DNA of 39,281 bases from Barthelona sp. PAP020 (Eukaryota): assembly GCA_040182905.1 (NCBI GenBank), contig JARQWU010000070.1, positions 1 through 39,281 of the forward strand, given 5' to 3'. Below the pieces are notes generated by a model. That model worked only from the letters and a program-made list of their open reading frames with translations. It searched no databases and was not told the DNA's origin. Numbering within the stretch: position 1 is the stretch's first letter; each line of letters begins with the position of its first letter. The position numbers were made by a program, and so were the translations under genes. Below, in pieces: positions 2,112 through 39,281 of this stretch.

Positions 2112-4679
2112 TTAACTCTTTGAAGAAACTTCAACATCAGGAAATACAATAGAAACAGCTGTATGAACTCTAAAATGACTTGTAATGGAAATATTTCCAC
2201 CAATTTCAGTTAAAATTTTTTTGCATCTGGGCAAACCATAACCAAAATGTCCTTTCTTGGTAGTAAAGCCATGATTGAATACCTTTGATAAATTATCAAG
2301 TGGAATACCTTTACCTTTATCATAAATGGCAATTTCAATAATTCTATTAGCACCCTGAATATTTTCTTTGGCACTGATAACAACGTGTCCTACATCTTCT
2401 GAATTTGGTGAATCTGTGGTATTAACACATGCTTCTACTGCATTAATTAAAACATTGAACAAAACTATTCTCAGCTGTGGCTTTTTTAAATGCGACAAGG
2501 AAAGCCTAACGTCTGAATGATTTTGAACACGTATTATACTTAAAGGAAATTCAACAGCAACTAGTTTTGTCAATAGATCTAAGAAAGAACCTAATTGAAG
2601 GGTATCATCATGTTCTAAAACTGTGTCATTGAACAAATAATCATAGGACATCTTTGCATCAAGTAAATGTTCTTGAGCTTGGTTTATTAGAGTCATATTG
2701 TTCCATAAAGAGCTTAAAAGGTCATAAATATCATCCTCTTTCTCCAATAAACCTGCTAGGTTTTCATCCCTCTGAATTTCTTTTAATAATTCCTTGATAT
2801 CCTTCCAATTATACGAAAGGGGATCAAATCGTTTATCTCCAGTAGCAAATGGAGAAATTTCTTCTGAAAACAATTTGGATACATTGATCAATGTTGAATC
2901 TATGGAACATTGAACCAAATTAAATGTGTTTCTGATCTGATAGCCAGCTAACAGTTTCATTCTACCCAATGATTTTTCATCATGTTGTTTTTCCAAGGTT
3001 TGAATAGTGTTTACTTCCAAACATAAGTCATCAAACTTGATAATGTACCCATAGTGTGTAATAGCTTTTTTTCTATTACGAAAGTCAAATCTATCGAAAA
3101 TAGAGTTAGTTTTAGAATTTATTTCATTGTCTATGTGTTGAGATTGAGATCTTGAAAGTTTTGATCCATTATTATGAGTCTTAGAAGTATTTTTTGAAAA
3201 GGATTCAGCATTATTAAGTGTATTTGCTGTATTTGCTAATGAATTATTCGTGTTCAAATTTGAATTAACTTTTATAGCAGATCTGTTCGTATAAAATAGA
3301 TCTGTAGCAGTATCAAACTTTTCTACTGGCAAAATGTCGACACTGAAATAATGTTTTTTCACATTTGATAAACTATTTAAACAAGGTAAAGCTTCAAGAA
3401 AATATGCAGGAATTGACTGTTCAATATCAAAGATGTTTGAATCACTGTTCACATTTAAATTCCCATTATTACTGTTATCTGTACTGTTTCGCATAAATCT
3501 AACTTCCATATCCATTCGAATGTTAGCAAAATTACAATCTTTTGAGGTGGCAATCTCTTTTAGACGTTGATTCAATATGCTTTTATTCTTGCTATCAGTC
3601 GGTAAAAAATCAGGAAATCTTAACAGAGAATGATTTTGAACATTTATGTTCAAAAGGTAATTAGCAGCTAAATTCGAAAATAACAGCCTAAAATCAGAAT
3701 TAACAATGATAATAGCATTTAAAGAACTGCTTAATAGCAAAGATAAGGACCGATTCACTTTCTTATAGGTTTCTCCATAAATAAAATGACTTCTCCTCAA
3801 TATTATGAAACTTAAGATTAAAACCATTAAAAAGAAGGCAATAATCCCTAAAGTGATGGTTATCGTGGTTGTCTTTACTCTTTGAGGACTTTGTACAGGA
3901 AACTTCAATTGACTCAAAATAATTGTCCCATTTTCAATGAGTTCAGTTAATTTTGGATTAAATACATTGTAAAAAGCAATTCCATTGGCACTATTATTCC
4001 CAAAAGCAAATGTATTAAACTCGGGAGATAGATAAAATTGTCCTTCAACAATTTCTACATCAACTGAAGAATATATCAAATCTATAATATATTGGGCATT
4101 ATAAATATCACAAATAGCAACATCAATACTCTTTGCTACCAATTGTTCTAATAATCCATTTGCTGTGTAATGAAAGTATCGCTTTTCAACTTCTATTTGC
4201 ATACTATCCATTAAAGTTTCAAAGAATTCAGTAAATGAAGCATTTAATGTCAACCCTATTGTCTTTCCTTTGAAATCAAATGGTGAATCATAATTGTCAA
4301 ATCCGTAGACTCCAGCAAAAGTTAATTGGGTAATTGTACTGAATACAGCAAAAGTTTGTCGATAATTCGTGGGAAATAATGGAAATACCATATCAACTTC
4401 ACCTAATTTTAATTTATTCACACATAATGAAGCGGTGTCGACTTGATATTGATATGTATAACTGTTTCCATCATCAATTTTATTTACCGTCTTTAAAAAC
4501 ATTTCAAACATCACACCTTTTATTTCTTCTTCACTAAATACTATCCCATCTCTCGCACTTAAATCATAATTCACGTATGCAAAGGGTGCAAAATCCAAAA
4601 TACATACTTTAATTAATGTACTCTCCACAATATTCAATATCAATATTATAAATATTATCTTATATATCATAAAATCCAT
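2112..4679 (-). CDS. Membrane sensor histidine-kinase-like receptor: signal peptide, periplasmic-binding-protein (SBP_bac_3/PBPb-like) domain, TM, PAS-like region, degenerate DHp, HATPase_c
   Basis: N-terminal hydrophobic signal. SBP-like motifs DFAPFAY, LKLGEVDMV, DFKGKTIG, LVAKSIDVAICD and FNPKLTELIENGT. TM segment TITITLGIIAFFLMVLILSFIIL. PAS-like start LNAIIIVNSDFRLLFSNLAANYLL. N box FNVLINAVEA, G1 YDKGKGIP, F box VFNHGFTTK, G2 GHFGYGL. Confidence 0.85.
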   Translation of the reverse strand: MDFMIYKIIFIILILNIVESTLIKVCILDFAPFAYVNYDLSARDGIVFSEEEIKGVMFEMFLKTVNKIDDGNSYTYQYQVDTASLCVNKLKLGEVDMVFPLFPTNYRQTFAVFSTITQLTFAGVYGFDNYDSPFDFKGKTIGLTLNASFTEFFETLMDSMQIEVEKRYFHYTANGLLEQLVAKSIDVAICDIYNAQYIIDLIYSSVDVEIVEGQFYLSPEFNTFAFGNNSANGIAFYNVFNPKLTELIENGTIILSQLKFPVQSPQRVKTTTITITLGIIAFFLMVLILSFIILRRSHFIYGETYKKVNRSLSLLLSSSLNAIIIVNSDFRLLFSNLAANYLLNINVQNHSLLRFPDFLPTDSKNKSILNQRLKEIATSKDCNFANIRMDMEVRFMRNSTDNSNNGNLNVNSDSNIFDIEQSIPAYFLEALPCLNSLSNVKKHYFSVDILPVEKFDTATDLFYTNRSAIKVNSNLNTNNSLANTANTLNNAESFSKNTSKTHNNGSKLSRSQSQHIDNEINSKTNSIFDRFDFRNRKKAITHYGYIIKFDDLCLEVNTIQTLEKQHDEKSLGRMKLLAGYQIRNTFNLVQCSIDSTLINVSKLFSEEISPFATGDKRFDPLSYNWKDIKELLKEIQRDENLAGLLEKEDDIYDLLSSLWNNMTLINQAQEHLLDAKMSYDYLFNDTVLEHDDTLQLGSFLDLLTKLVAVEFPLSIIRVQNHSDVRLSLSHLKKPQLRIVLFNVLINAVEACVNTTDSPNSEDVGHVVISAKENIQGANRIIEIAIYDKGKGIPLDNLSKVFNHGFTTKKGHFGYGLPRCKKILTEIGGNISITSHFRVHTAVSIVFPDVEVSSKS

Positions 4680-22802: not shown

Positions 22803-23389
22803 TTAGGCAGTATAGCGTTCCATAGCTTTAGTACGACGACGTTCACGAGCATTTTTGTTCTTTTCACGACGAGCATCAGCCTTATCAGTTTCAATGGTGA
22901 CACGCTTTTGTTCATTCTTGATGAAGTGAATACGTTCACGAAGAACAGTCTTGTTCTTGAAAGTGTTACCCTTAACTAAGAGATAGAGTTCATGATAAAG
23001 ATATCTATCAATCTTTCCATCACGACGATAACGTTGAAGTAAACGACGTAAGATTCTCATTCTACGAGTCCAAAGAATTTTGGAAGGCATACGAGCTTCA
23101 CGAGTACCGTGACGCTTACCAATACCGGCATGACGACCAAGACGATTAGCCATCATACGCTTTTTATGACGAGTAGTGGAGTGAATTTCAGTGGGGACCT
23201 TACGGATAAGTTTTTGAGAAATTAACTTCTTAACATCGGCACCTAAATATTAGATAGCTTCAAAATAAAATTCATACGATGAGCAGCAGCCTTGATTTCG
23301 GCAGCATCGGCAGGAGACATCCAGACGCGGTTCTTACCACATTTAAGGATAGAAGCAGCCAAACGTTTTTGTAAAGTAACAGAGACCAT
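22803..23389 (-). CDS. RPL19: 60S ribosomal protein eL19, 2 exons (23278-23389, 22803-23242), 183 aa
   Basis: [26 protein letters not shown]... joined to [20 protein letters not shown] and [17 protein letters not shown]. High-expression codon bias. Confidence 0.97.
23243..23277 (-). other. Spliceosomal intron, 35 nt
   Basis: GTATGA...ATCTAATATTTAG. Removal restores the eL19 frame. Confidence 0.93.
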
Positions 23390-23589
23390 GTGTGTTTAGG
23401 TGAAAAATATTTTTGGAAGAATTTTTTTTGTGTAAGTTTTCAACATTTTTTTTTTCTGCATCAATTTTTAAATTTCATAAATAACTTTCAAATACAATTG
23501 AATTATTTTGAAACTCTTTAATGATAAAATTATCTTTTTTGTTAAAAGTCTGAACAAAGAAGGTGAGAGATATTTTTATTTCTTTTTTA

Positions 23590-31484: not shown

Positions 31485-31557
31485 TCCGATATAGTCTACT
31501 TGGTTAGGATAGTGGGTTTTCACCCCGCAGAACCGGGTTCGAATCCCGGTATCGGAG
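31485..31557 (+). tRNA. tRNA-Glu (TTC)
   Basis: Acceptor TCCGATA/TATCGGA, anticodon arm GTGGG-TTTTCAC-CCCGC, T arm CCGGG-TTCGAAT-CCCGG, followed by T-run TTGTTTTT. Confidence 0.97.
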
Positions 31558-31585
31558 TTGTTTTTAGTCCCAATATCAAAAGAAA

Positions 31586-31599
31586 GAGGATCGAGTCTG
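31586..31599 (+). promoter_or_regulatory. Putative external B-box-like motif GAGGATCGAGTCTG
   Basis: Identical 14-mer at the equivalent position behind tRNA-Gly. GGATCGAGTCT resembles the B-box consensus GGTTCGANTCC. Confidence 0.6.
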
Positions 31600-31607
31600 A
31601 AATTATC

Positions 31608-31679
31608 AAATTATTGAGACCTTTCACCACACTGCACANNNNNNNNNNAAATTATTGAGACCTTTCACCACACTGCACA
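31608..31679. other. 10-N scaffold gap (31639-31648) flanked by an exact 31-bp direct duplication
   Basis: AAATTATTGAGACCTTTCACCACACTGCACA at 31608-31638 and 31649-31679. Confidence 0.95.
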
Positions 31680-31695
31680 AAAGAATTAACACAAA

Positions 31696-31844
31696 TTCAC
31701 GTTAGGTACAAGAAAAGGTATACGAAAGCTTTTATATACGGTGTGTTATTGAAATGAGTAGTTGGGAAAGCCTTGAATTTGAATCCTGGCTGTTTGAAAT
31801 GACTTAGTTCTGATTGAAAGATTGGACGATATTGAATCCCTAAA
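31696..31844. repeat. 149-bp tRNA-associated element, copy 1
   Basis: 148/149 identical to 39004-39152, in the same orientation relative to the upstream tRNA. Confidence 0.95.
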
Positions 31845-32059
31845 AGAAAAAGAAATGACTTCAATAACTTTGGATAGAAAATTTGATTAAGGAAATTCAG
31901 ACAATGGTTGAAAATTTTGGGAAAATTTCTTTTGTAATCTTTCAAGATTCTTTATTAGCCAGTAACATTAGATTCTTATTTGTCTTAAGCTCAACTAGTT
32001 GTTTTATTATTTGATAAATTCTGAAATACGAGAAATTTTGCTTGATTCAAATTCTGGCG

Positions 32060-32220
32060 CATTTCTTCACGCTTTTCTTTTTCCCTCCTTGTGAAATGCC
32101 CACTACGCTACACAATTTTATGTGTGGATGGTTCATAAAACTCAAAAAGAAATGCTTGAGGTTTTCATTTTTGATACATAAACACATTTGCATTGTCTTT
32201 TACATGAAATCTCTCCGTTT
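32060..32220. repeat. Internally deleted copy of the repeat at 50-500
   Basis: Three collinear match blocks that are adjacent here but separated by ~30 and ~170 bp in the copy at the window start. Confidence 0.7.
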
Positions 32221-32497
32221 TTCTGCAAATACATCTAAAAATATTGGAACTTTTCAGTTTTAATCCGCTTATATCGAAACACAAAACTACAAAAACCAAC
32301 AACACATTTTTTGTACTATTTTATGTGGAATTTGTTTGTTTCTGCATAAAGAATTTTCAACAAAGCAAAGAGATGATAATTCCCCACTAATAATAAACGT
32401 TACATTTTCAAAACATATTTACACAAAAAATTCAATATTTAACATTTATTCTTTCAAAAATATTTTAAAAGTATCAAGCAAACAAACTATTAACCAT

Positions 32498-33325
32498 TCA
32501 AAACGATGAACTCTGCGAAAACAACAATCTTTTTTTGCATTGGGGACAATTTGGCTCCATAAATTCATCGCAAATAATACAACAACAGTTGGTACAAACT
32601 CTTGATTTTGAAACCAGATTACCATGACACAAACAAGGCGGTTGTGCAATGCATTCTGAAACTACAGTGATAGGACAAGTCGTTCCCTCTGTTTCAGGCA
32701 AAAAATGAATCAACATATCTCCCAAATTATGATCAAACATGTGCAACAATTCCCCATTACACAAAGAAACTCCTCTTGCTAAAACATTTTCGGTTATTAC
32801 TTTTAACTGTTGTTGAAGTAAAACATTACATTTTAAGCCACTTCTATAACATAATTCAAAAGCATTTAACAGTGACAAATACTGGTTTTTGTGGATATTG
32901 GTTGTGTGAAAAATGGTACAATATGACTCAACTTTAGGGTTGTTGATTGCATATCTCATTTTCAAAATGCATGCCATATGCAAAGCAGCATCCAAAGAAC
33001 TATAATTTATATCCAGTTCAGCGTTTATTTGGGCAAATTCATTTTCAACATTAAGTCTAAAATTTGAAAAAAAAGTATCAGCGGGAAAAGAGAGATTTTG
33101 CTTTTTTAAATCTTTATCAAAAGATTTACTCAAAATTTTTATATCATTTGAAGTGTAACCAATAAGAATAATCTGATAATTTGGGTAAAAATTGTAAAAA
33201 ATGGAAATGAATGAAAAAAATTCATTCAAGGATTCTCTTAATCTTTCATCTGTCTTAGAAAAATAAATAATATTAATATCTATTAGAAATATATGGGCAG
33301 GAAAGGAAATATTTGATTTTGTCAT
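32498..33325 (-). CDS. TFB4: TFIIH subunit p34/Tfb4
   Basis: vWA-like N-terminus with SSLDAALHMA and QYLSLLNAFE, plus C-terminal zinc finger CLCH...VCTNCCCIIC...CPQC. Confidence 0.85.
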   Translation of the reverse strand: MTKSNISFPAHIFLIDINIIYFSKTDERLRESLNEFFSFISIFYNFYPNYQIILIGYTSNDIKILSKSFDKDLKKQNLSFPADTFFSNFRLNVENEFAQINAELDINYSSLDAALHMACILKMRYAINNPKVESYCTIFHTTNIHKNQYLSLLNAFELCYRSGLKCNVLLQQQLKVITENVLARGVSLCNGELLHMFDHNLGDMLIHFLPETEGTTCPITVVSECIAQPPCLCHGNLVSKSRVCTNCCCIICDEFMEPNCPQCKKRLLFSQSSSF

Positions 33326-33515
33326 GTTTTTCGATGTTAATAAAAAAAATTAAGAAAAATTATCTCAAAGATCAGCAAATATTATATTATCAATTAAAGG
33401 AAGTTATAATTTTCGTTTTTTTTTTTTTAAAAAAAGTATTTCTCGTTGAAAAAGAAGTGAATATAAAAAAAAAATTTTTATCCGTTCATTTTTCTTTTTT
33501 CTTTTGAAATTTCAA

Positions 33516-34736
33516 ATGTCTCATGAAACACAACCACTTGTGAACATCGATCCAAGTGATGTTCTTCTTGATGAAAAAGAGAAAACTAATCCCAATGAAG
33601 TTTACCCTTCTGCTATGGTTTTTACTATGACTATGTTTGCTGGTTATGCATCCCTTTTTGCTTTACAAGGGAAATTATTGGATTTCATTCACAAAGGAGA
33701 TCCTTTATATGTTCATGGTGATTCTGATGTACTTTTTGGTGTTGGAACTTCATTTTTATATTTAGGTAATTTAATTTTTAGATTAGGACATAATGTTTTC
33801 TTCTTTTTTTTGACACCTCGTGAAAGAATTTTTCTTTCTATGTGGGCAATGTTTTTTGCAGAAGTTGTTTTAGTTTATGGATTTATTACCCTTGAAAAAG
33901 GAGCTTATTGGATGGTCTTTTTGGCTTATGGACTTGGTGGATTAGGTATTGGTTGTTTTGAATCAAATATGATTAATATTTGCACGCCTTTAGGTCCTAA
34001 AACTAAGAAATGGGCTGTTTCTGGTATTCCACCAGGAGTCAGTCTTCTTACTGTTGGTTCTTTCGTAGCTATGGTTGCTTTTCCCTCATTAGATGAACAT
34101 GTTGAATACATATATGCCTCAATTGGTGTTCTTATTCTTTTCGGTATGTTTTGCGTGAAATTTAGAATGCCTAATAGAGAAGTTAAAGGACAAGGAATAT
34201 CTTTGACTGACATGAGGAATTATTTAGATGAAATAAAGGACTGGATTGGTCCTGTCCTTCCTTATGCTGTTGCTATGATGTTTAATATGTTCTGTGTTTC
34301 ATTCTTTAGCCCTGGTATTGTGTTATATATCTTTGGTGATAGACCTGTGTTGTTAGATTACGGTATTTTCAGTTTTACTTTATCTCACAATGCTTTTGTG
34401 GCTATTTATAATATCCTTTTCTTTTTAGGAGATTTCTTTTCACGTAGAGTCTTTTTTGACCTTGGAAGACATTCTCCCTTTATTCATTTAATTATTTCTA
34501 CTTTTGGTATCATTTGTGGTTTATCACAATTTGGCGCAATCACTTTATTCTGTGCTTTTGCTGTAGCTTGGGCTAATGGTACCATTTATTGTCAATCTAC
34601 CCGAGAAATAGATGAAAAAGTCCATTCCAAATATAATTTGATTGCCACTTCAATGTTCTTCTTTATTGGAGATTGTGGATCTGTTGTTGGATCTAATTTA
34701 ATCCAAATTGTCAAAAGAAACTTTTTCAGTGGTTAA
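33516..34736 (+). CDS. CLN3/battenin-like MFS-fold membrane protein
   Basis: About 10-11 TM helices, YGLGGLGIGCFESN, and C-terminal YNLIATSMFFFIGDCGSVVGSN resembling the CLN3/Btn1 last helix. Confidence 0.7.
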   Translation: MSHETQPLVNIDPSDVLLDEKEKTNPNEVYPSAMVFTMTMFAGYASLFALQGKLLDFIHKGDPLYVHGDSDVLFGVGTSFLYLGNLIFRLGHNVFFFFLTPRERIFLSMWAMFFAEVVLVYGFITLEKGAYWMVFLAYGLGGLGIGCFESNMINICTPLGPKTKKWAVSGIPPGVSLLTVGSFVAMVAFPSLDEHVEYIYASIGVLILFGMFCVKFRMPNREVKGQGISLTDMRNYLDEIKDWIGPVLPYAVAMMFNMFCVSFFSPGIVLYIFGDRPVLLDYGIFSFTLSHNAFVAIYNILFFLGDFFSRRVFFDLGRHSPFIHLIISTFGIICGLSQFGAITLFCAFAVAWANGTIYCQSTREIDEKVHSKYNLIATSMFFFIGDCGSVVGSNLIQIVKRNFFSG

Positions 34737-35178
34737 TTTTAACATTTTATTTGTGAATATTATTTATAAATTTATTATTTATTTTTCTTTCAATTTTTTG
34801 ATTCCATTGGGCTAATTAGAACTTCAAACACTTTGTCTATAATTTCACATAAAGAAAATCGAAAGAAGAAGACTTAAATTAGAAGCGAAACCAGAAATTT
34901 CATTGATTTTCTTGACACCGAATTTTTGGTACATATTCTTTCACGAAAAGACAGAAATAACAAATAATTTTGGCTAAAAATGCACTTGAATTTATCTTTC
35001 AAATTTGTTCTCTTTTTAAACAAGAAAAATTAATAAATATTTATCTCATATGATTGAATTAATTAATTATATATTTTTAAAAAGAATCCTATTTCTCTTT
35101 GTGTCTTACTTTTAAATTTTTATATATTTTTAAATTATTTGGTCCAGTTGTAAAACTATTATATTTATTTACAAAGAA

Positions 35179-35686
35179 AATAAACTCAGAAAACTCATTT
35201 CCTCAAATCTCTACGTGGAAAATGTGTGGCTGTAATTGGATCTTGCTCATTAAGTGTGAAAATTTTAAAGTTTAAACTTTACTTAAAAGAATTTGAAGTT
35301 TTTCAGCAAATTAATAGAGTTTCAAAAATTCTTTTTCAAATAGACATTATTCTTTTTTATTTACTTGTATGGACAATCACAGTGCTTCTTTTTGAATCCA
35401 TGTGAGTTATCTCCAGGCCAAGAAGCACTGTGCGTATGAGTGAATAAAAAAGAACAGTGTTCATTTGATTAATGGCTTTCGAGGCCGATTGATCTGTTGA
35501 AGAACTTTAGATTTTCTAAAGTAAAGTTTAAACTTTAAAATTTTGCTTTGCAATAATACAAAAAAATATGAATGAAGAATTTCTCCAAAAATCTCCTGCT
35601 TGATCGTTCCAATTACATTTTAGTCCCTCAATTCCCCTCCTGGGATATTGACTGAAATTTGCTAGACAAAGTTTTCTGAGTTTATT
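35179..35686. repeat. ~500-bp imperfect inverted repeat (foldback)
   Basis: Nested perfect inverted pairs 35179-35195/35670-35686, 35231-35240/35608-35617, 35259-35284/35519-35544 and 35378-35390/35420-35432, with a 29-nt central loop. Confidence 0.92.
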
Positions 35687-35955
35687 AGATATTAATGAGG
35701 TATGAGTTGTTCAGTGAACAACGAAACAAGTTAGCTTATGGTTTGGGAAAAACTCATGTTGATTCAGATGCCCAAGTAACTTAAAAAATTGGACCTAAAG
35801 GGGATCAAGAAACAACAAATAACAGAAGCGATATTTGATGACCTCTTTATATCTCCAATAAATTCCGTTCATTAAGCATAAACTTCTACATTACCTCAGA
35901 AAATCAAAAGTTCTTCAACAGATCAATGGGACCTCCAAAGCCTTTAACCAAATAA
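35687..35955. repeat. Left arm of long inverted repeat flanking the kinase fragment and WD40 gene
   Basis: Reverse complement of ~38435-38645 (44-bp perfect match 35830-35873/38452-38495). 35898-35955 matches 35465-35517 and ~38205-38265 in inverted orientation. Confidence 0.9.
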
Positions 35956-35981
35956 GTACGCAGGTCCCGGGACCTGGTCTT

Positions 35982-36256
35982 GATTCTTGGTCATTTGGAA
36001 GTGTTTATTTTGAAGTTATAACAGGAGATATTCCTTTCAAAGAAACTCAAGACGGGGTGGTTAGTACTGTAATGGTTATCATTATGATGAAGTTAAGAAA
36101 GTTGATGGATATGATTTCAATTTCATGTTCTCATGTTTTCATCCCGAAGCTAAAGAGAGACCAACAATGTCAGAAATTGTTGAGTTTTTAATGATGTTGA
36201 TCGTCAATTGCACAAATAATCCTCAAGCTGATGTTCAAACTGATGTTCAACGTTAA
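35982..36256 (+). pseudogene. Protein kinase C-lobe fragment (subdomains IX-XI), frameshifted
   Basis: DSWSFGSVYFEVITGDIPF in one frame and SCFHPEAKERPTMSEIVEFL...TAA in another. No upstream HRD/DFG/APE, because the upstream DNA is repeat sequence. Confidence 0.85.
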
Positions 36257-36850
36257 AATTTTCTTTCAATTACTGATCCAAACAAGTGATCACTATTTTA
36301 ATTGCTTTGTAACAACTATGTTTTGTGTTCTCCCAATGTTGCGGAATTTGTAAATTTTGTTGTTTATTTTTATTTGTTCGAAACGTCTTCCATAACTTTT
36401 CAAACTTGGATCGCTTCAAGGGCCATCTAGAGAAGAGAGCTGACCTATACTATGTGCGAAATCATTACCATAATAGTTGTTCAAAAGAGCAACAAGGCTT
36501 TGCTCTTGACATTTATCTTAAGATTCCTGCTAAAGGAAAATAGAAAGAACAGTAAATTTTGATAGCTTTGTGAACTTTATTGTCTTTTCTTTTTTCAAAC
36601 ATGATGTTTGTTTTTTTTGACCAAAAAACATGGTGAATATAAATAAAGAAATAAAAATAAAATTGTGTTAATTTGAAAAAGAGCTATTGACAAGTTGAAG
36701 CTTGATTTTTTTCTAAATCAACAACTCCATCATATTTATCATTTAAATTTTTCAAACACATTATTTGCCTTATTTTCTTTTGCATACTGCTATCCAAGTT
36801 TCTTCAATCAACAAAAAATCCGAAACATTCAAAAAGAAATTTTTCTTTTC

Positions 36851-38068
36851 ATGTTACTTTTGCAATCAACAGAAGAATTGACAAAAAAAGTTATCCATGA
36901 AACAAACAATTGGCAAATTATTGAAAATGATTCAATTAAAATTAAAGCTGATATCTCAAGTTTTATGACATGCTGTGAATATTCACCAGATGGAAAATAT
37001 TTAGCTGTTGGTTGTAATGATGGAGATGTTTACATCATAGATTCAGAGAATGGAAACCTGATTCAAACTTTAGATACCCATTCATACAAAGTTTGTGCTG
37101 TTTGTGCTGTTGCTTTTTCACCTGATGGACAAATGCTTGCAACTTGTGCCGAAGACTGTTTTCTTGCAATTTATTCCCTTGAGGATTACACCATTTCCCA
37201 TTTTTTTAACTATAGTTCTGTTGTTTTTGATATTTGCTTTTCTCATTGCAGTAATTATCTATATTTTCAGGAGATGGAGGGGGTTCTAACTAAATTGAAT
37301 TTGCATAACTATGAGATGGTCCTTAGTGAAGGAGTTGAAGATAGAGCTGTTTGGAAATTGAAACTGTCTCCAGATGGGCGGTATATTTTAACTTCCAATT
37401 GTGCAACAGCTAAATTAATTCTTGCAAATGATTTCTCTGTTGTACACATCTTCGATCATGACGGTTACATCAGTGTTGTTGACTTCCATCCAACACAAAA
37501 AATTGTAGCTGTTGGGGATGATGCACAGTGCATAAAACTCTATAATACAGAAGATGGATCTCTGGTTCGCTCATTTTATGCTAGTGGTGGCTATCTAAAT
37601 TGTATTAAATTTTTATCACCTTATATCATGCTTGTTATGACTACTGATCACTGTTTAACTGCATACAATTTGGATAGTCTTGAAAAGATTCACAGAATTC
37701 AGTGTTATAGCAAAAGCTCAACGAAAACATTTACGATTTCACCTCAATCAACTCAATTAGCCTGTGAGAATCAATATGATGGAAGCATTGAATTATATGC
37801 AATTATGCGTATTTTTGAAACCCTAAATCTTTCTGGACTCATTGAATTGTCGAAGAATCACAGTGGTGTGCTATTGACTCTTATTTCCATGAAGGAGGAT
37901 TTTAAATTAATCAGACAATTAGTAAGTGGTGGAATTTGCATGAATGAGGAGGAGTTTGAAAACATAATTAACATCTGCTGGGATTTAATTACTGTTAATG
38001 AAGCTAATGGTGGTAATATGCAAGAATTTGTGGAAAAGGGAATTGACATTAGCACTGATGATGACTGA
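36851..38068 (+). CDS. WD40-repeat protein with conserved unrecognised C-terminal domain (paralog of 734-1936)
   Basis: 405 aa from ATG 36851. YSPDGKYLAVG, FSPDGQMLATC and HDGYISVVDFHP are collinear with the 734-1936 product over most of its length. Confidence 0.9.
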   Translation: MLLLQSTEELTKKVIHETNNWQIIENDSIKIKADISSFMTCCEYSPDGKYLAVGCNDGDVYIIDSENGNLIQTLDTHSYKVCAVCAVAFSPDGQMLATCAEDCFLAIYSLEDYTISHFFNYSSVVFDICFSHCSNYLYFQEMEGVLTKLNLHNYEMVLSEGVEDRAVWKLKLSPDGRYILTSNCATAKLILANDFSVVHIFDHDGYISVVDFHPTQKIVAVGDDAQCIKLYNTEDGSLVRSFYASGGYLNCIKFLSPYIMLVMTTDHCLTAYNLDSLEKIHRIQCYSKSSTKTFTISPQSTQLACENQYDGSIELYAIMRIFETLNLSGLIELSKNHSGVLLTLISMKEDFKLIRQLVSGGICMNEEEFENIINICWDLITVNEANGGNMQEFVEKGIDISTDDD

Positions 38069-38199
38069 AAAAATCGACACATTCACTCACAAAAGTAACA
38101 GCTACAAAATTAACAGACTGGAAGACATCAAATTGACATTGTCACAACATGGTCCAATACTACTTCTTATACTTCAGGTGTGGAAAACTTTGGACAATT

Positions 38200-38663
38200 G
38201 TATTTATTTGATTAAAGGCTGTTAACGCCCAATTCATTGGGATTAAAAACTTCAGATTTTCCAAAGTAAAGTTAAAATTGATATTTTATTTTTGCCAATT
38301 AATAAAAGAATAGGAATAAAAAATTTTCATATTAGATCACTCATTTAATTTCATAAATTTAAAAGACTTTTATTTTTTTTTGTTAACTCATCACGTTGGG
38401 GTTTGGTATAGTTAGAACTTTTCGATGACGAAGATGTGGAAGTTCATGCTCAATGAACGGAATTTATTGGAGATATAAAGAGGTCATCAAATATCACTTC
38501 CTTTATTTGTTGTTTCTTGACCACCTTTAGGTCCAATTTTTTAAGTTACTTGGGCATTTGAATCCACGTGAGTTTTTCCTAAACCTTAAGCCCTTAGCTA
38601 ATTTGTTTCGTAGTTCACTAAACAACTTATACCTCATAAATATTTAATTATTTTGTAATTGGA
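38200..38663. repeat. Right arm of long inverted repeat / modules shared with 35179-35955
   Basis: ~38205-38300 is a diverged direct match to ~35463-35560, ~38435-38645 is an inverted match to 35687-35890, and TGTAATTGGA recurs at 38654-38663. Confidence 0.85.
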
Positions 38664-38798
38664 TTAATTGTTTAATTCCATTTTAATAAATAATTCGTTT
38701 AAATTAACATTCTTAATTGTCACATTATTATTATTTTGAAAGAAATCTTTTTTAAAAAGACTTATTTTAAGTATATTATAAAATCTTTGTTTTCACCA

Positions 38799-38869
38799 GC
38801 TTCGTTGGTTTAATGGTAGAATGCGACGTTGCCATCGTTGCGACCCGGGTTCGATTCCCGGACGAAGCA
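38799..38869 (+). tRNA. tRNA-Gly (GCC)
   Basis: Acceptor GCTTCGT/ACGAAGC, anticodon arm CGACG-TTGCCAT-CGTTG, T arm CCGGG-TTCGATT-CCCGG, followed by TTTT. Confidence 0.97.
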
Positions 38870-38896
38870 AATTTTAGCTAAAAAGAACAATGAAAT

Positions 38897-38910
38897 GAGG
38901 ATCGAGTCTG
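38897..38910 (+). promoter_or_regulatory. Putative external B-box-like motif GAGGATCGAGTCTG
   Basis: Identical to 31586-31599, and 27 nt after the tRNA end. Confidence 0.6.
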
Positions 38911-38914
38911 TGAA

Positions 38915-39003
38915 TTCACGTTAGAAGAAAGGGCAAAATTAAAGGCTTTAATTTATATTTACTAACTGGGGTTGGGGAAATTACTCCATGGTTTTCAACA
39001 ATT
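38915..39003. repeat. Short diverged relative of the 149-bp element
   Basis: Same TTCACGTTAG start, then AAGAAAGGG..AAAGGCTTTAATTTATA..GTTGGGGAAA vs AAGAAAAGG..AAAGCTTTTATATA..GTTGGGAAAG. Confidence 0.6.
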
Positions 39004-39152
39004 TTCACGTTAGGTACAAGAAAAGGTATACGAAAGCTTTTATATACGGTGTGTTATTGAAATGAGTAGTTGGGAAAGCCTTGAATTTGAATGCTGGCTG
39101 TTTGAAATGACTTAGTTCTGATTGAAAGATTGGACGATATTGAATCCCTAAA
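39004..39152. repeat. 149-bp tRNA-associated element, copy 2
   Basis: 148/149 identical to 31696-31844. The single difference is GAATCCTGG vs GAATGCTGG. Confidence 0.95.
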
Positions 39153-39281
39153 TTCACTCGACAAAATAATAAACATTGGATAAAAGCTTTTACTGTTCAA
39201 GGTTAGAGTTTGGGTTACTTGTCACTGGTCTGTTGTGCGTAGATTGGTTCAGAACTCTCCTATAAAAAAAAAAAGGAAGGT

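Follow-up and report, generated by a model that had tools for sequence, protein, structure and literature searches.

A 149-bp repeat, here called unit A, lies twice in the same orientation in a 39,281-nucleotide stretch of the genome of the metamonad Barthelona sp. PAP020 (GenBank assembly GCA_040182905.1, contig JARQWU010000070.1, positions 1 to 39,281 of the forward strand; hereafter the window), each time downstream of a different transfer RNA (tRNA) gene. Our tentative reading is that it belongs to a family of mobile elements that are short and non-autonomous, were probably retroposed, and favour sites 3′ of tRNA genes. The repeat itself is a real, non-random feature. One copy (31696–31844, + strand) lies behind tRNA-Glu and runs into an A-rich tract (31842–31855, 12 of 14 A), while the other (39004–39152, +) lies behind tRNA-Gly and abuts a second kind of unit, B. 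The copies are identical at 148 of their 149 bp, the sole difference being C/G at 31785/39093. Unit A begins TTCACG and ends CCTAAA. The sequence CCCTAAA resembles one telomere repeat unit; as a single 7-mer its presence at the end of unit A is no evidence of a telomere repeat.

The two genes, tRNA-Glu(TTC) (31485–31557, +) and tRNA-Gly(GCC) (38799–38869, +), were found with both ARAGORN and Rfam, and are the only tRNA genes in the window. They are followed by runs of T5 (31561–31565) and T4 (38872–38875) respectively, which are likely terminators for RNA polymerase III (Pol III). Unit A starts 138 nt past the end of tRNA-Glu, or 97 nt if a 31-nt overlap and 10 N at a scaffold gap are collapsed, and 134 nt past the end of tRNA-Gly. 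An earlier note made from the sequence alone had reported the repeat, its orientation and these distances, all of which were confirmed by sequence comparison. When two copies were dropped at random 2 million times into the 9,283 non-coding bases of the window, the probability that both fell no more than 150 nt downstream of different tRNA genes in the same orientation was P = 2.9e-4. This test was chosen after seeing the data, and P becomes ∼1e-3 once the four non-coding repeat families of the window are allowed for. It is unlikely that the link of unit A with tRNA genes arose by chance.

The two values for the distance from tRNA-Glu reflect the structure of the scaffold gap. Its 10 N (31639–31648) are flanked on either side by an identical 31 nt, so that the whole spans 31608–31679; the match is exact, and the 31-mer occurs at only these two places in the window. 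An unmerged contig overlap is the simplest reading of this sequence, in which case the distance becomes 97 nt. The copy of unit A behind tRNA-Glu starts 47 nt after the gap, and that behind tRNA-Gly ends 129 nt before the end of the window, so that one of them might be an assembly artefact arising from a misjoin or a pasted sequence, either at the gap or close to where the window ends. This is very improbable, however, because the exact and unique overlap supports the join, and the two copies have unlike flanks on both sides besides their difference of one base.

The two tRNA genes are identical at 38 of 73 aligned positions. With unit A left out, the homology of their trailers is not significant (P > 0.14 in seven of eight tests, and P = 0.039 in one). 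An old duplication of the whole tRNA locus was therefore rejected, there being no significant homology of the trailers outside a single 14-mer, and the earlier note had rightly discounted a segmental duplication. Its further statement that the tRNAs and the flanking DNA differ holds for the tRNAs, but both trailers contain this identical 14-mer.

The 14-mer GAGGATCGAGTCTG is located at 31586–31599 (+) and 38897–38910 (+), starting 28 nt past tRNA-Glu and 27 nt past tRNA-Gly and in each case after the T-run. It is thus present at two out of two tRNA genes in the window with an offset that agrees within 1 nt, and even when two mismatches are allowed the window contains no further match to it (0.08 expected). 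By contrast the 20 nt on each side of it agree between the loci at only 9/20 and 6/20 positions. Since the 14-mer is shared while its surroundings are unlike, it looks functionally conserved rather than the remnant of a duplication. It has a B-box-like core lying 31–32 nt past both tRNAs, the G of which (31589 and 38900) falls 52 and 51 nt after that of the internal B box in tRNA-Glu and tRNA-Gly respectively. The core fits the wider consensus GWTCRANNC, and the chance of finding a B-box core at both places is ∼7e-5. It matches GTTCRANNC, given as the B-box query in PMC5391098, except at position 2. The 14-mer is thus a candidate external B box that resembles that of Dictyostelium, and it may be bound by TFIIIC. 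The sources on the Dictyostelium box disagree on its position and share, with one text placing it ∼41 bp downstream of 66% of tRNA genes (PMC3159450), and a review placing it ∼100 bp after the internal box at ∼80% of them (PMC5911963).

At the tRNA-Gly locus unit A is the middle member of a head-to-tail stack, in the order C, A, B. Unit C (38915–39003, +) is 89 nt in length and starts 45 nt past the tRNA. It has the same first 10-mer as unit A and is weakly similar beyond; this recurrence of the first 10 nt of unit A, 89 nt upstream, has P ∼1.4e-4 within the trailer. All three exact matches of the 10-mer in the window are at the starts of units (A, A and C). Unit B (39153–39274, +) starts with TTCAC exactly where unit A ends, and terminates in A11 (39264–39274) seven bases before the end of the window. 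A diverged copy of it, unit B′ (99–224, +), lies near the other end of the window and likewise has an A-rich end. In a self-comparison of the window, B and B′ are 75% identical over 129 columns (E 5e-12), and the similarity begins where the tRNA-Gly copy of unit A stops. Units A, B, B′ and C all begin TTCAC. The 10-mer at the start of C, together with the similarity of B and B′ from the end of A, makes the ends of unit A look like the ends of units rather than the borders of some random patch. Any deeper kinship of A, B and C is weak, and nhmmer gave no link between the units. Tandem arrays were absent from both tRNA loci (none among 20 rows of Tandem Repeats Finder), and an insertion of unit A within a B-like unit at the tRNA-Glu locus was rejected as not significant (P = 0.14–0.55).

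A-rich 3′ ends are seen on three units. The terminal tract contains, in 14 nt, 12 A for unit A behind tRNA-Glu, 12 for unit B (with its A11) and 11 for B′. As background, 0.7% of 8,995 non-coding 14-mers reach 12 A and 1.9% reach 11. Unit A behind tRNA-Gly ends in only three A before unit B begins. The earlier note saw no poly(A) tail in the window, which goes too far in view of the tract of 12/14 A that follows the tRNA-Glu copy and the A11 of unit B.

It might be argued that unit A is a repeat dispersed without targeting, and that its sites close to tRNA genes are due to luck or to survival in tolerated spacers. Unit B′ is not visibly linked to a tRNA gene, a repeat at 35684–35891 and a hairpin at 35259–35544 are not near tRNA 3′ ends, and the placement test was selected with the data in view. 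Yet its P of 2.9e-4 was already conditioned on non-coding DNA, and four of the five units (A, A, B and C) lie behind tRNA genes, albeit three of them in a single stack. We consider this explanation improbable.

Alternatively, units A, B and C could be genes for small non-coding RNAs or regulatory cassettes kept behind the tRNAs, for which the 14-mer would be an external element of the Pol III promoter. The conservation of the 14-mer but not its surroundings would be in keeping with this. Two hairpins can be formed in common by B and B′, with 2 of 16 predicted pairs changed on both sides, although this is a comparison of two sequences only. In addition, the small RNAs of metamonads can be too diverged for Rfam. 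Other results count against it. Rfam gave no match over A, B′ and C, and only sub-threshold chance matches in the tail of B and the trailer; no covariance-model match or hallmark box of the known families (small nuclear RNA, small nucleolar RNA (snoRNA), 5S RNA and signal recognition particle RNA) was found in the units, which lack a C box and U1, U2, U5, U6 and Sm motifs. On neither strand does unit A fold better than its shuffles (z +0.4 to +1.6), and the best fold of B, B′ and C has z = −1.3. Moreover, unit A contains an internal T4 at position 35, and the spacing from the 14-mer to unit A differs between the loci if the gap is collapsed. Genes of this kind are therefore an unlikely explanation, yet one that remains a real rival. 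Helitron-type ends, a tRNA–snoRNA dicistron and a spliced-leader RNA were also considered and rejected, given the T-runs directly after both tRNAs and the lack of a C box and of an Sm site.

Several observations weigh against a mobile element family. The window contains only two copies of unit A and, as two copies always share both ends, the shared ends alone say nothing on mobility. The kinship of the units is weak. The local similarity of A and C has P = 0.002, a value that rises to 0.10 once their common 10-mer is removed; with TTCAC fixed, P = 0.002 for A and B′, 0.014 for A and C and 0.11 for A and B, among 15 pairs tested. The 98 bases upstream of B′ (1–98), where the window ends, hold neither a tRNA gene nor the 14-mer. 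From the core of the 14-mer to unit A is 104 nt at the tRNA-Gly locus, compared with 66 nt at the tRNA-Glu locus with the gap collapsed (107 nt if not). Other dispersed repeats lie nearby without any tie to the 3′ ends of tRNAs and include probable pieces of a kinase pseudogene, which indicates that short duplications arise by other routes too. Terminal inverted repeats, as in a miniature inverted-repeat transposable element (MITE) or another DNA transposon, were not found on the units (4–8 of 20 terminal positions complementary). Long terminal repeats (LTRs) end TG...CA, and each copy of a solo LTR carries a short target-site duplication. Unit A does not have TG...CA ends, and there is no target-site duplication common to its two copies. 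tRNA-derived short interspersed nuclear elements (SINEs) carry internal A and B boxes, of which A, B and B′ have none; unit C has a single loose match to the A box but none to the B box. Lastly, a Pfam scan of 18 open reading frames (ORFs) and 39 stop-to-stop frames of the window found no reverse transcriptase, endonuclease, integrase or recombinase.

The sequence TTCAC flanks the tRNA-Gly copy of unit A as a 5-nt direct repeat, and a 7-mer flanks C plus A. As the same letters begin the tRNA-Glu copy, these repeats read better as a unit end or a target motif. The best flank match of the tRNA-Glu copy is not adjacent to its left end. The absence of a visible target-site duplication and of an enzyme from the window had both been remarked upon in the earlier note, and both are borne out. 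Its proposal of a tRNA-targeted mobile element is partly supported, in that chance is an unlikely source of the link with tRNAs. With two copies, no target-site duplication common to both, no enzyme in the window and neither a tRNA nor the 14-mer in the 98 bases before B′, mobility and targeting are still putative.

These observations also bear on a one-off ectopic copying event, in which repair or gene conversion would have copied a 149-bp patch from one tRNA trailer to another with the TTCAC-type ends as microhomology, no mobile family being involved. Two copies, 99% identical and sharing no target-site duplication, are what such an event could leave, and the region has other duplicated scraps including the probable kinase pseudogene pieces. 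tRNA genes are moreover prone to clustering and fragility. On the other hand, the trailers have no significant homology outside unit A, and the ends of the patch coincide with a C-like start and with the point where the similarity of B and B′ begins. Neither the A-rich ends nor B′ would be explained. Ectopic copying also remains a real rival, and while it is not probable, we rate it a little above non-coding RNA genes.

No copy outside the window was found in the collections scanned. An exact pattern scan with a 25-mer of the unit found none in viral contigs, and one with a 23-mer none in metagenome contigs; a motif combining the tRNA T-arm and the 14-mer was similarly absent from metagenome and prokaryote contigs, and blastn against phages and plasmids gave no match. 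A 19-mer gave two viral loci where the match was no longer than 20–21 nt, which was dismissed as chance. Unit A has a frame of 48 codons without a stop on its minus strand, which was rejected as a coding fragment, since 19% of shuffles have one as long. It has no word-sharing homologue and no Atlas match, and its three phmmer matches are to tandem-repeat proteins in which the best single stretch scores ≤7.4 bits (E ∼1e6).

If unit A belongs to a targeted mobile family, the following mechanism may be proposed. The 14-mer would act as an external B box bound by TFIIIC, and the units would be inserted preferentially 45–140 nt 3′ of tRNA genes. The reverse transcriptase and endonuclease would be supplied by an autonomous element elsewhere in the genome, itself perhaps tethered by the complex of Pol III factors. 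Units would insert with the 5′ end towards the tRNA. At the tRNA-Gly locus a young unit A (its copies 99% identical) would have landed at the 5′ end of an older B (75%), displacing it, and successive 5′ insertions of this kind would give tandems, as for the TREs of Dictyostelium. In a genome dense with genes, the gain would be a place where insertion is safe.

The window is indeed gene-dense, with ∼30% GC and intergenic gaps mostly of <450 nt. The published genomes of barthelonids are 10.2 and 13.2 Mbp according to PMC11316075. The genes identified with Pfam include those for kinesin, clathrin, a dynein-regulatory protein and ribosomal protein L19. The last of these (22803–23390, −) has an apparent short intron of ∼35 nt near 23243–23277 as judged by eye. 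Two WD40 paralogues (734–1936, − and 36851–38068, +) have a common C-terminal extension. The 20 best relatives of the second (31–43% identity, similar length) come from one EukProt transcriptome, with both of the two checked labelled Barthelona, suggesting a lineage-specific expanded family. A 406-aa membrane protein (33516–34736, +) has no Pfam match; its relatives in protists and metagenomes are like the major facilitator superfamily, and a EukProt protein matches it at 99% identity, one of Barthelona sp. PCE at 53%. Protein similarity thus places the host among the barthelonid metamonads. An 855-aa protein (2112–4679, −) has a C-terminal HATPase_c domain, preceded by an N-terminus that by eye has the look of a bacterial-type extracellular solute-binding sensor and by a membrane segment. 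It is possibly a sensor histidine kinase, here in a metamonad.

Further repeats are present. Segments at 35684–35891 (+) and 38434–38648 (−) are 88% identical over 215 nt, and the second ends 150 nt upstream of tRNA-Gly. In one frame the repeat resembles part of a kinase in decay, and its first copy continues into fragments of a kinase at 35862–36256 (Pfam Pkinase, E 8e-4), and thus this dispersed repeat probably comprises pieces of a kinase pseudogene. An imperfect fold-back of 286 nt (35259–35544) has 57-nt arms that are 84% complementary and inner arms of 40 nt. It is MITE-like, but no flanking duplication was found; its arm is related to sequences at 35888–35953 and 38200–38326. A 48-nt similarity (79–81%, E 2e-4) links 454–501 with 32174–32221, each located 240–280 nt past the 3′ end of a minus-strand gene.

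[quoted passage not shown] Neither downstream insertion nor an external B box was found reported for metamonads in the literature searched, subscription papers excepted, and the text consulted in one paper on Barthelona does not describe transposable elements. The unit A family would, by analogy, work like TRE3 or Skipper-2 without necessarily belonging to either. That the entire arrangement of Dictyostelium evolved independently in a barthelonid metamonad, with an external B box and a mobile family using it, stacked head to tail downstream of tRNAs, is a more doubtful proposition than the mobile family itself. If true, it would be a second case in a distant lineage, in one of the smallest genomes of free-living eukaryotes. 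It would indicate that the pairing of downstream targeting with an external B box can evolve repeatedly, and its comparison with Dictyostelium could bear on the role of that box. Even if the repeat is not mobile, the 14-mer is of interest by itself.

Unit A can be compared with several known systems. Like tRNA-derived SINEs the units are short and non-coding with A-rich 3′ ends, and would need enzymes in trans; unlike them, A, B and B′ have no internal A or B box or tRNA-like head, and there is no target-site duplication. Yeast Ty1 and Ty3 and Dictyostelium TRE5 and DGLT-A likewise belong to compact genomes in which they land at Pol III genes, but they are described as inserting upstream of the tRNA (PMC5911963), whereas unit A is downstream. 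The 14-mer carries a B-box consensus tens of bases 3′ of the tRNA, as does the external B box of the Dictyostelium type, with a core that departs from GTTCRANNC at position 2 and lies 31–32 nt past the tRNA. TRE3 elements are described as able to target downstream of an internal or external B box, inserting 40–150 bp downstream of tRNA genes (PMC5911963). The positions of unit A (97 or 138 nt, and 134 nt) and of unit C (45 nt) fit this range, where the orientation would be that indicated by the A-rich ends. Skipper-2, a Ty3/gypsy element of dictyostelids, is given as inserting 7–136 bp downstream of tRNA genes, and the units resemble both elements in position and stacking (PMC5006619). The solo LTRs of Skipper-2 are also short repeats with identical ends, but the Skipper-2 LTRs given there, of 208 and 315 bp, are longer than unit A (PMC5006619), and unit A is without TG...CA ends and its tRNA-Glu copy without a target-site duplication. 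TRE3 has two ORFs, with an apurinic/apyrimidinic (AP) endonuclease, a reverse transcriptase and a zinc finger in ORF2, none of which was found by Pfam among the ORFs and frames of the window; the units here are of only 89–149 nt, and both copies of A share both ends. TRE3 has a 3′ poly(A) tail; the ends seen here are A-rich for unit A behind tRNA-Glu (12/14), B (A11) and B′ (11/14), with three A for unit A behind tRNA-Gly and no clean poly(A) on unit A. The host of TRE3 is an amoebozoan, and that of unit A a metamonad. The candidate external B box, the stack of units and the A-rich ends nevertheless add to the TRE3-like picture.

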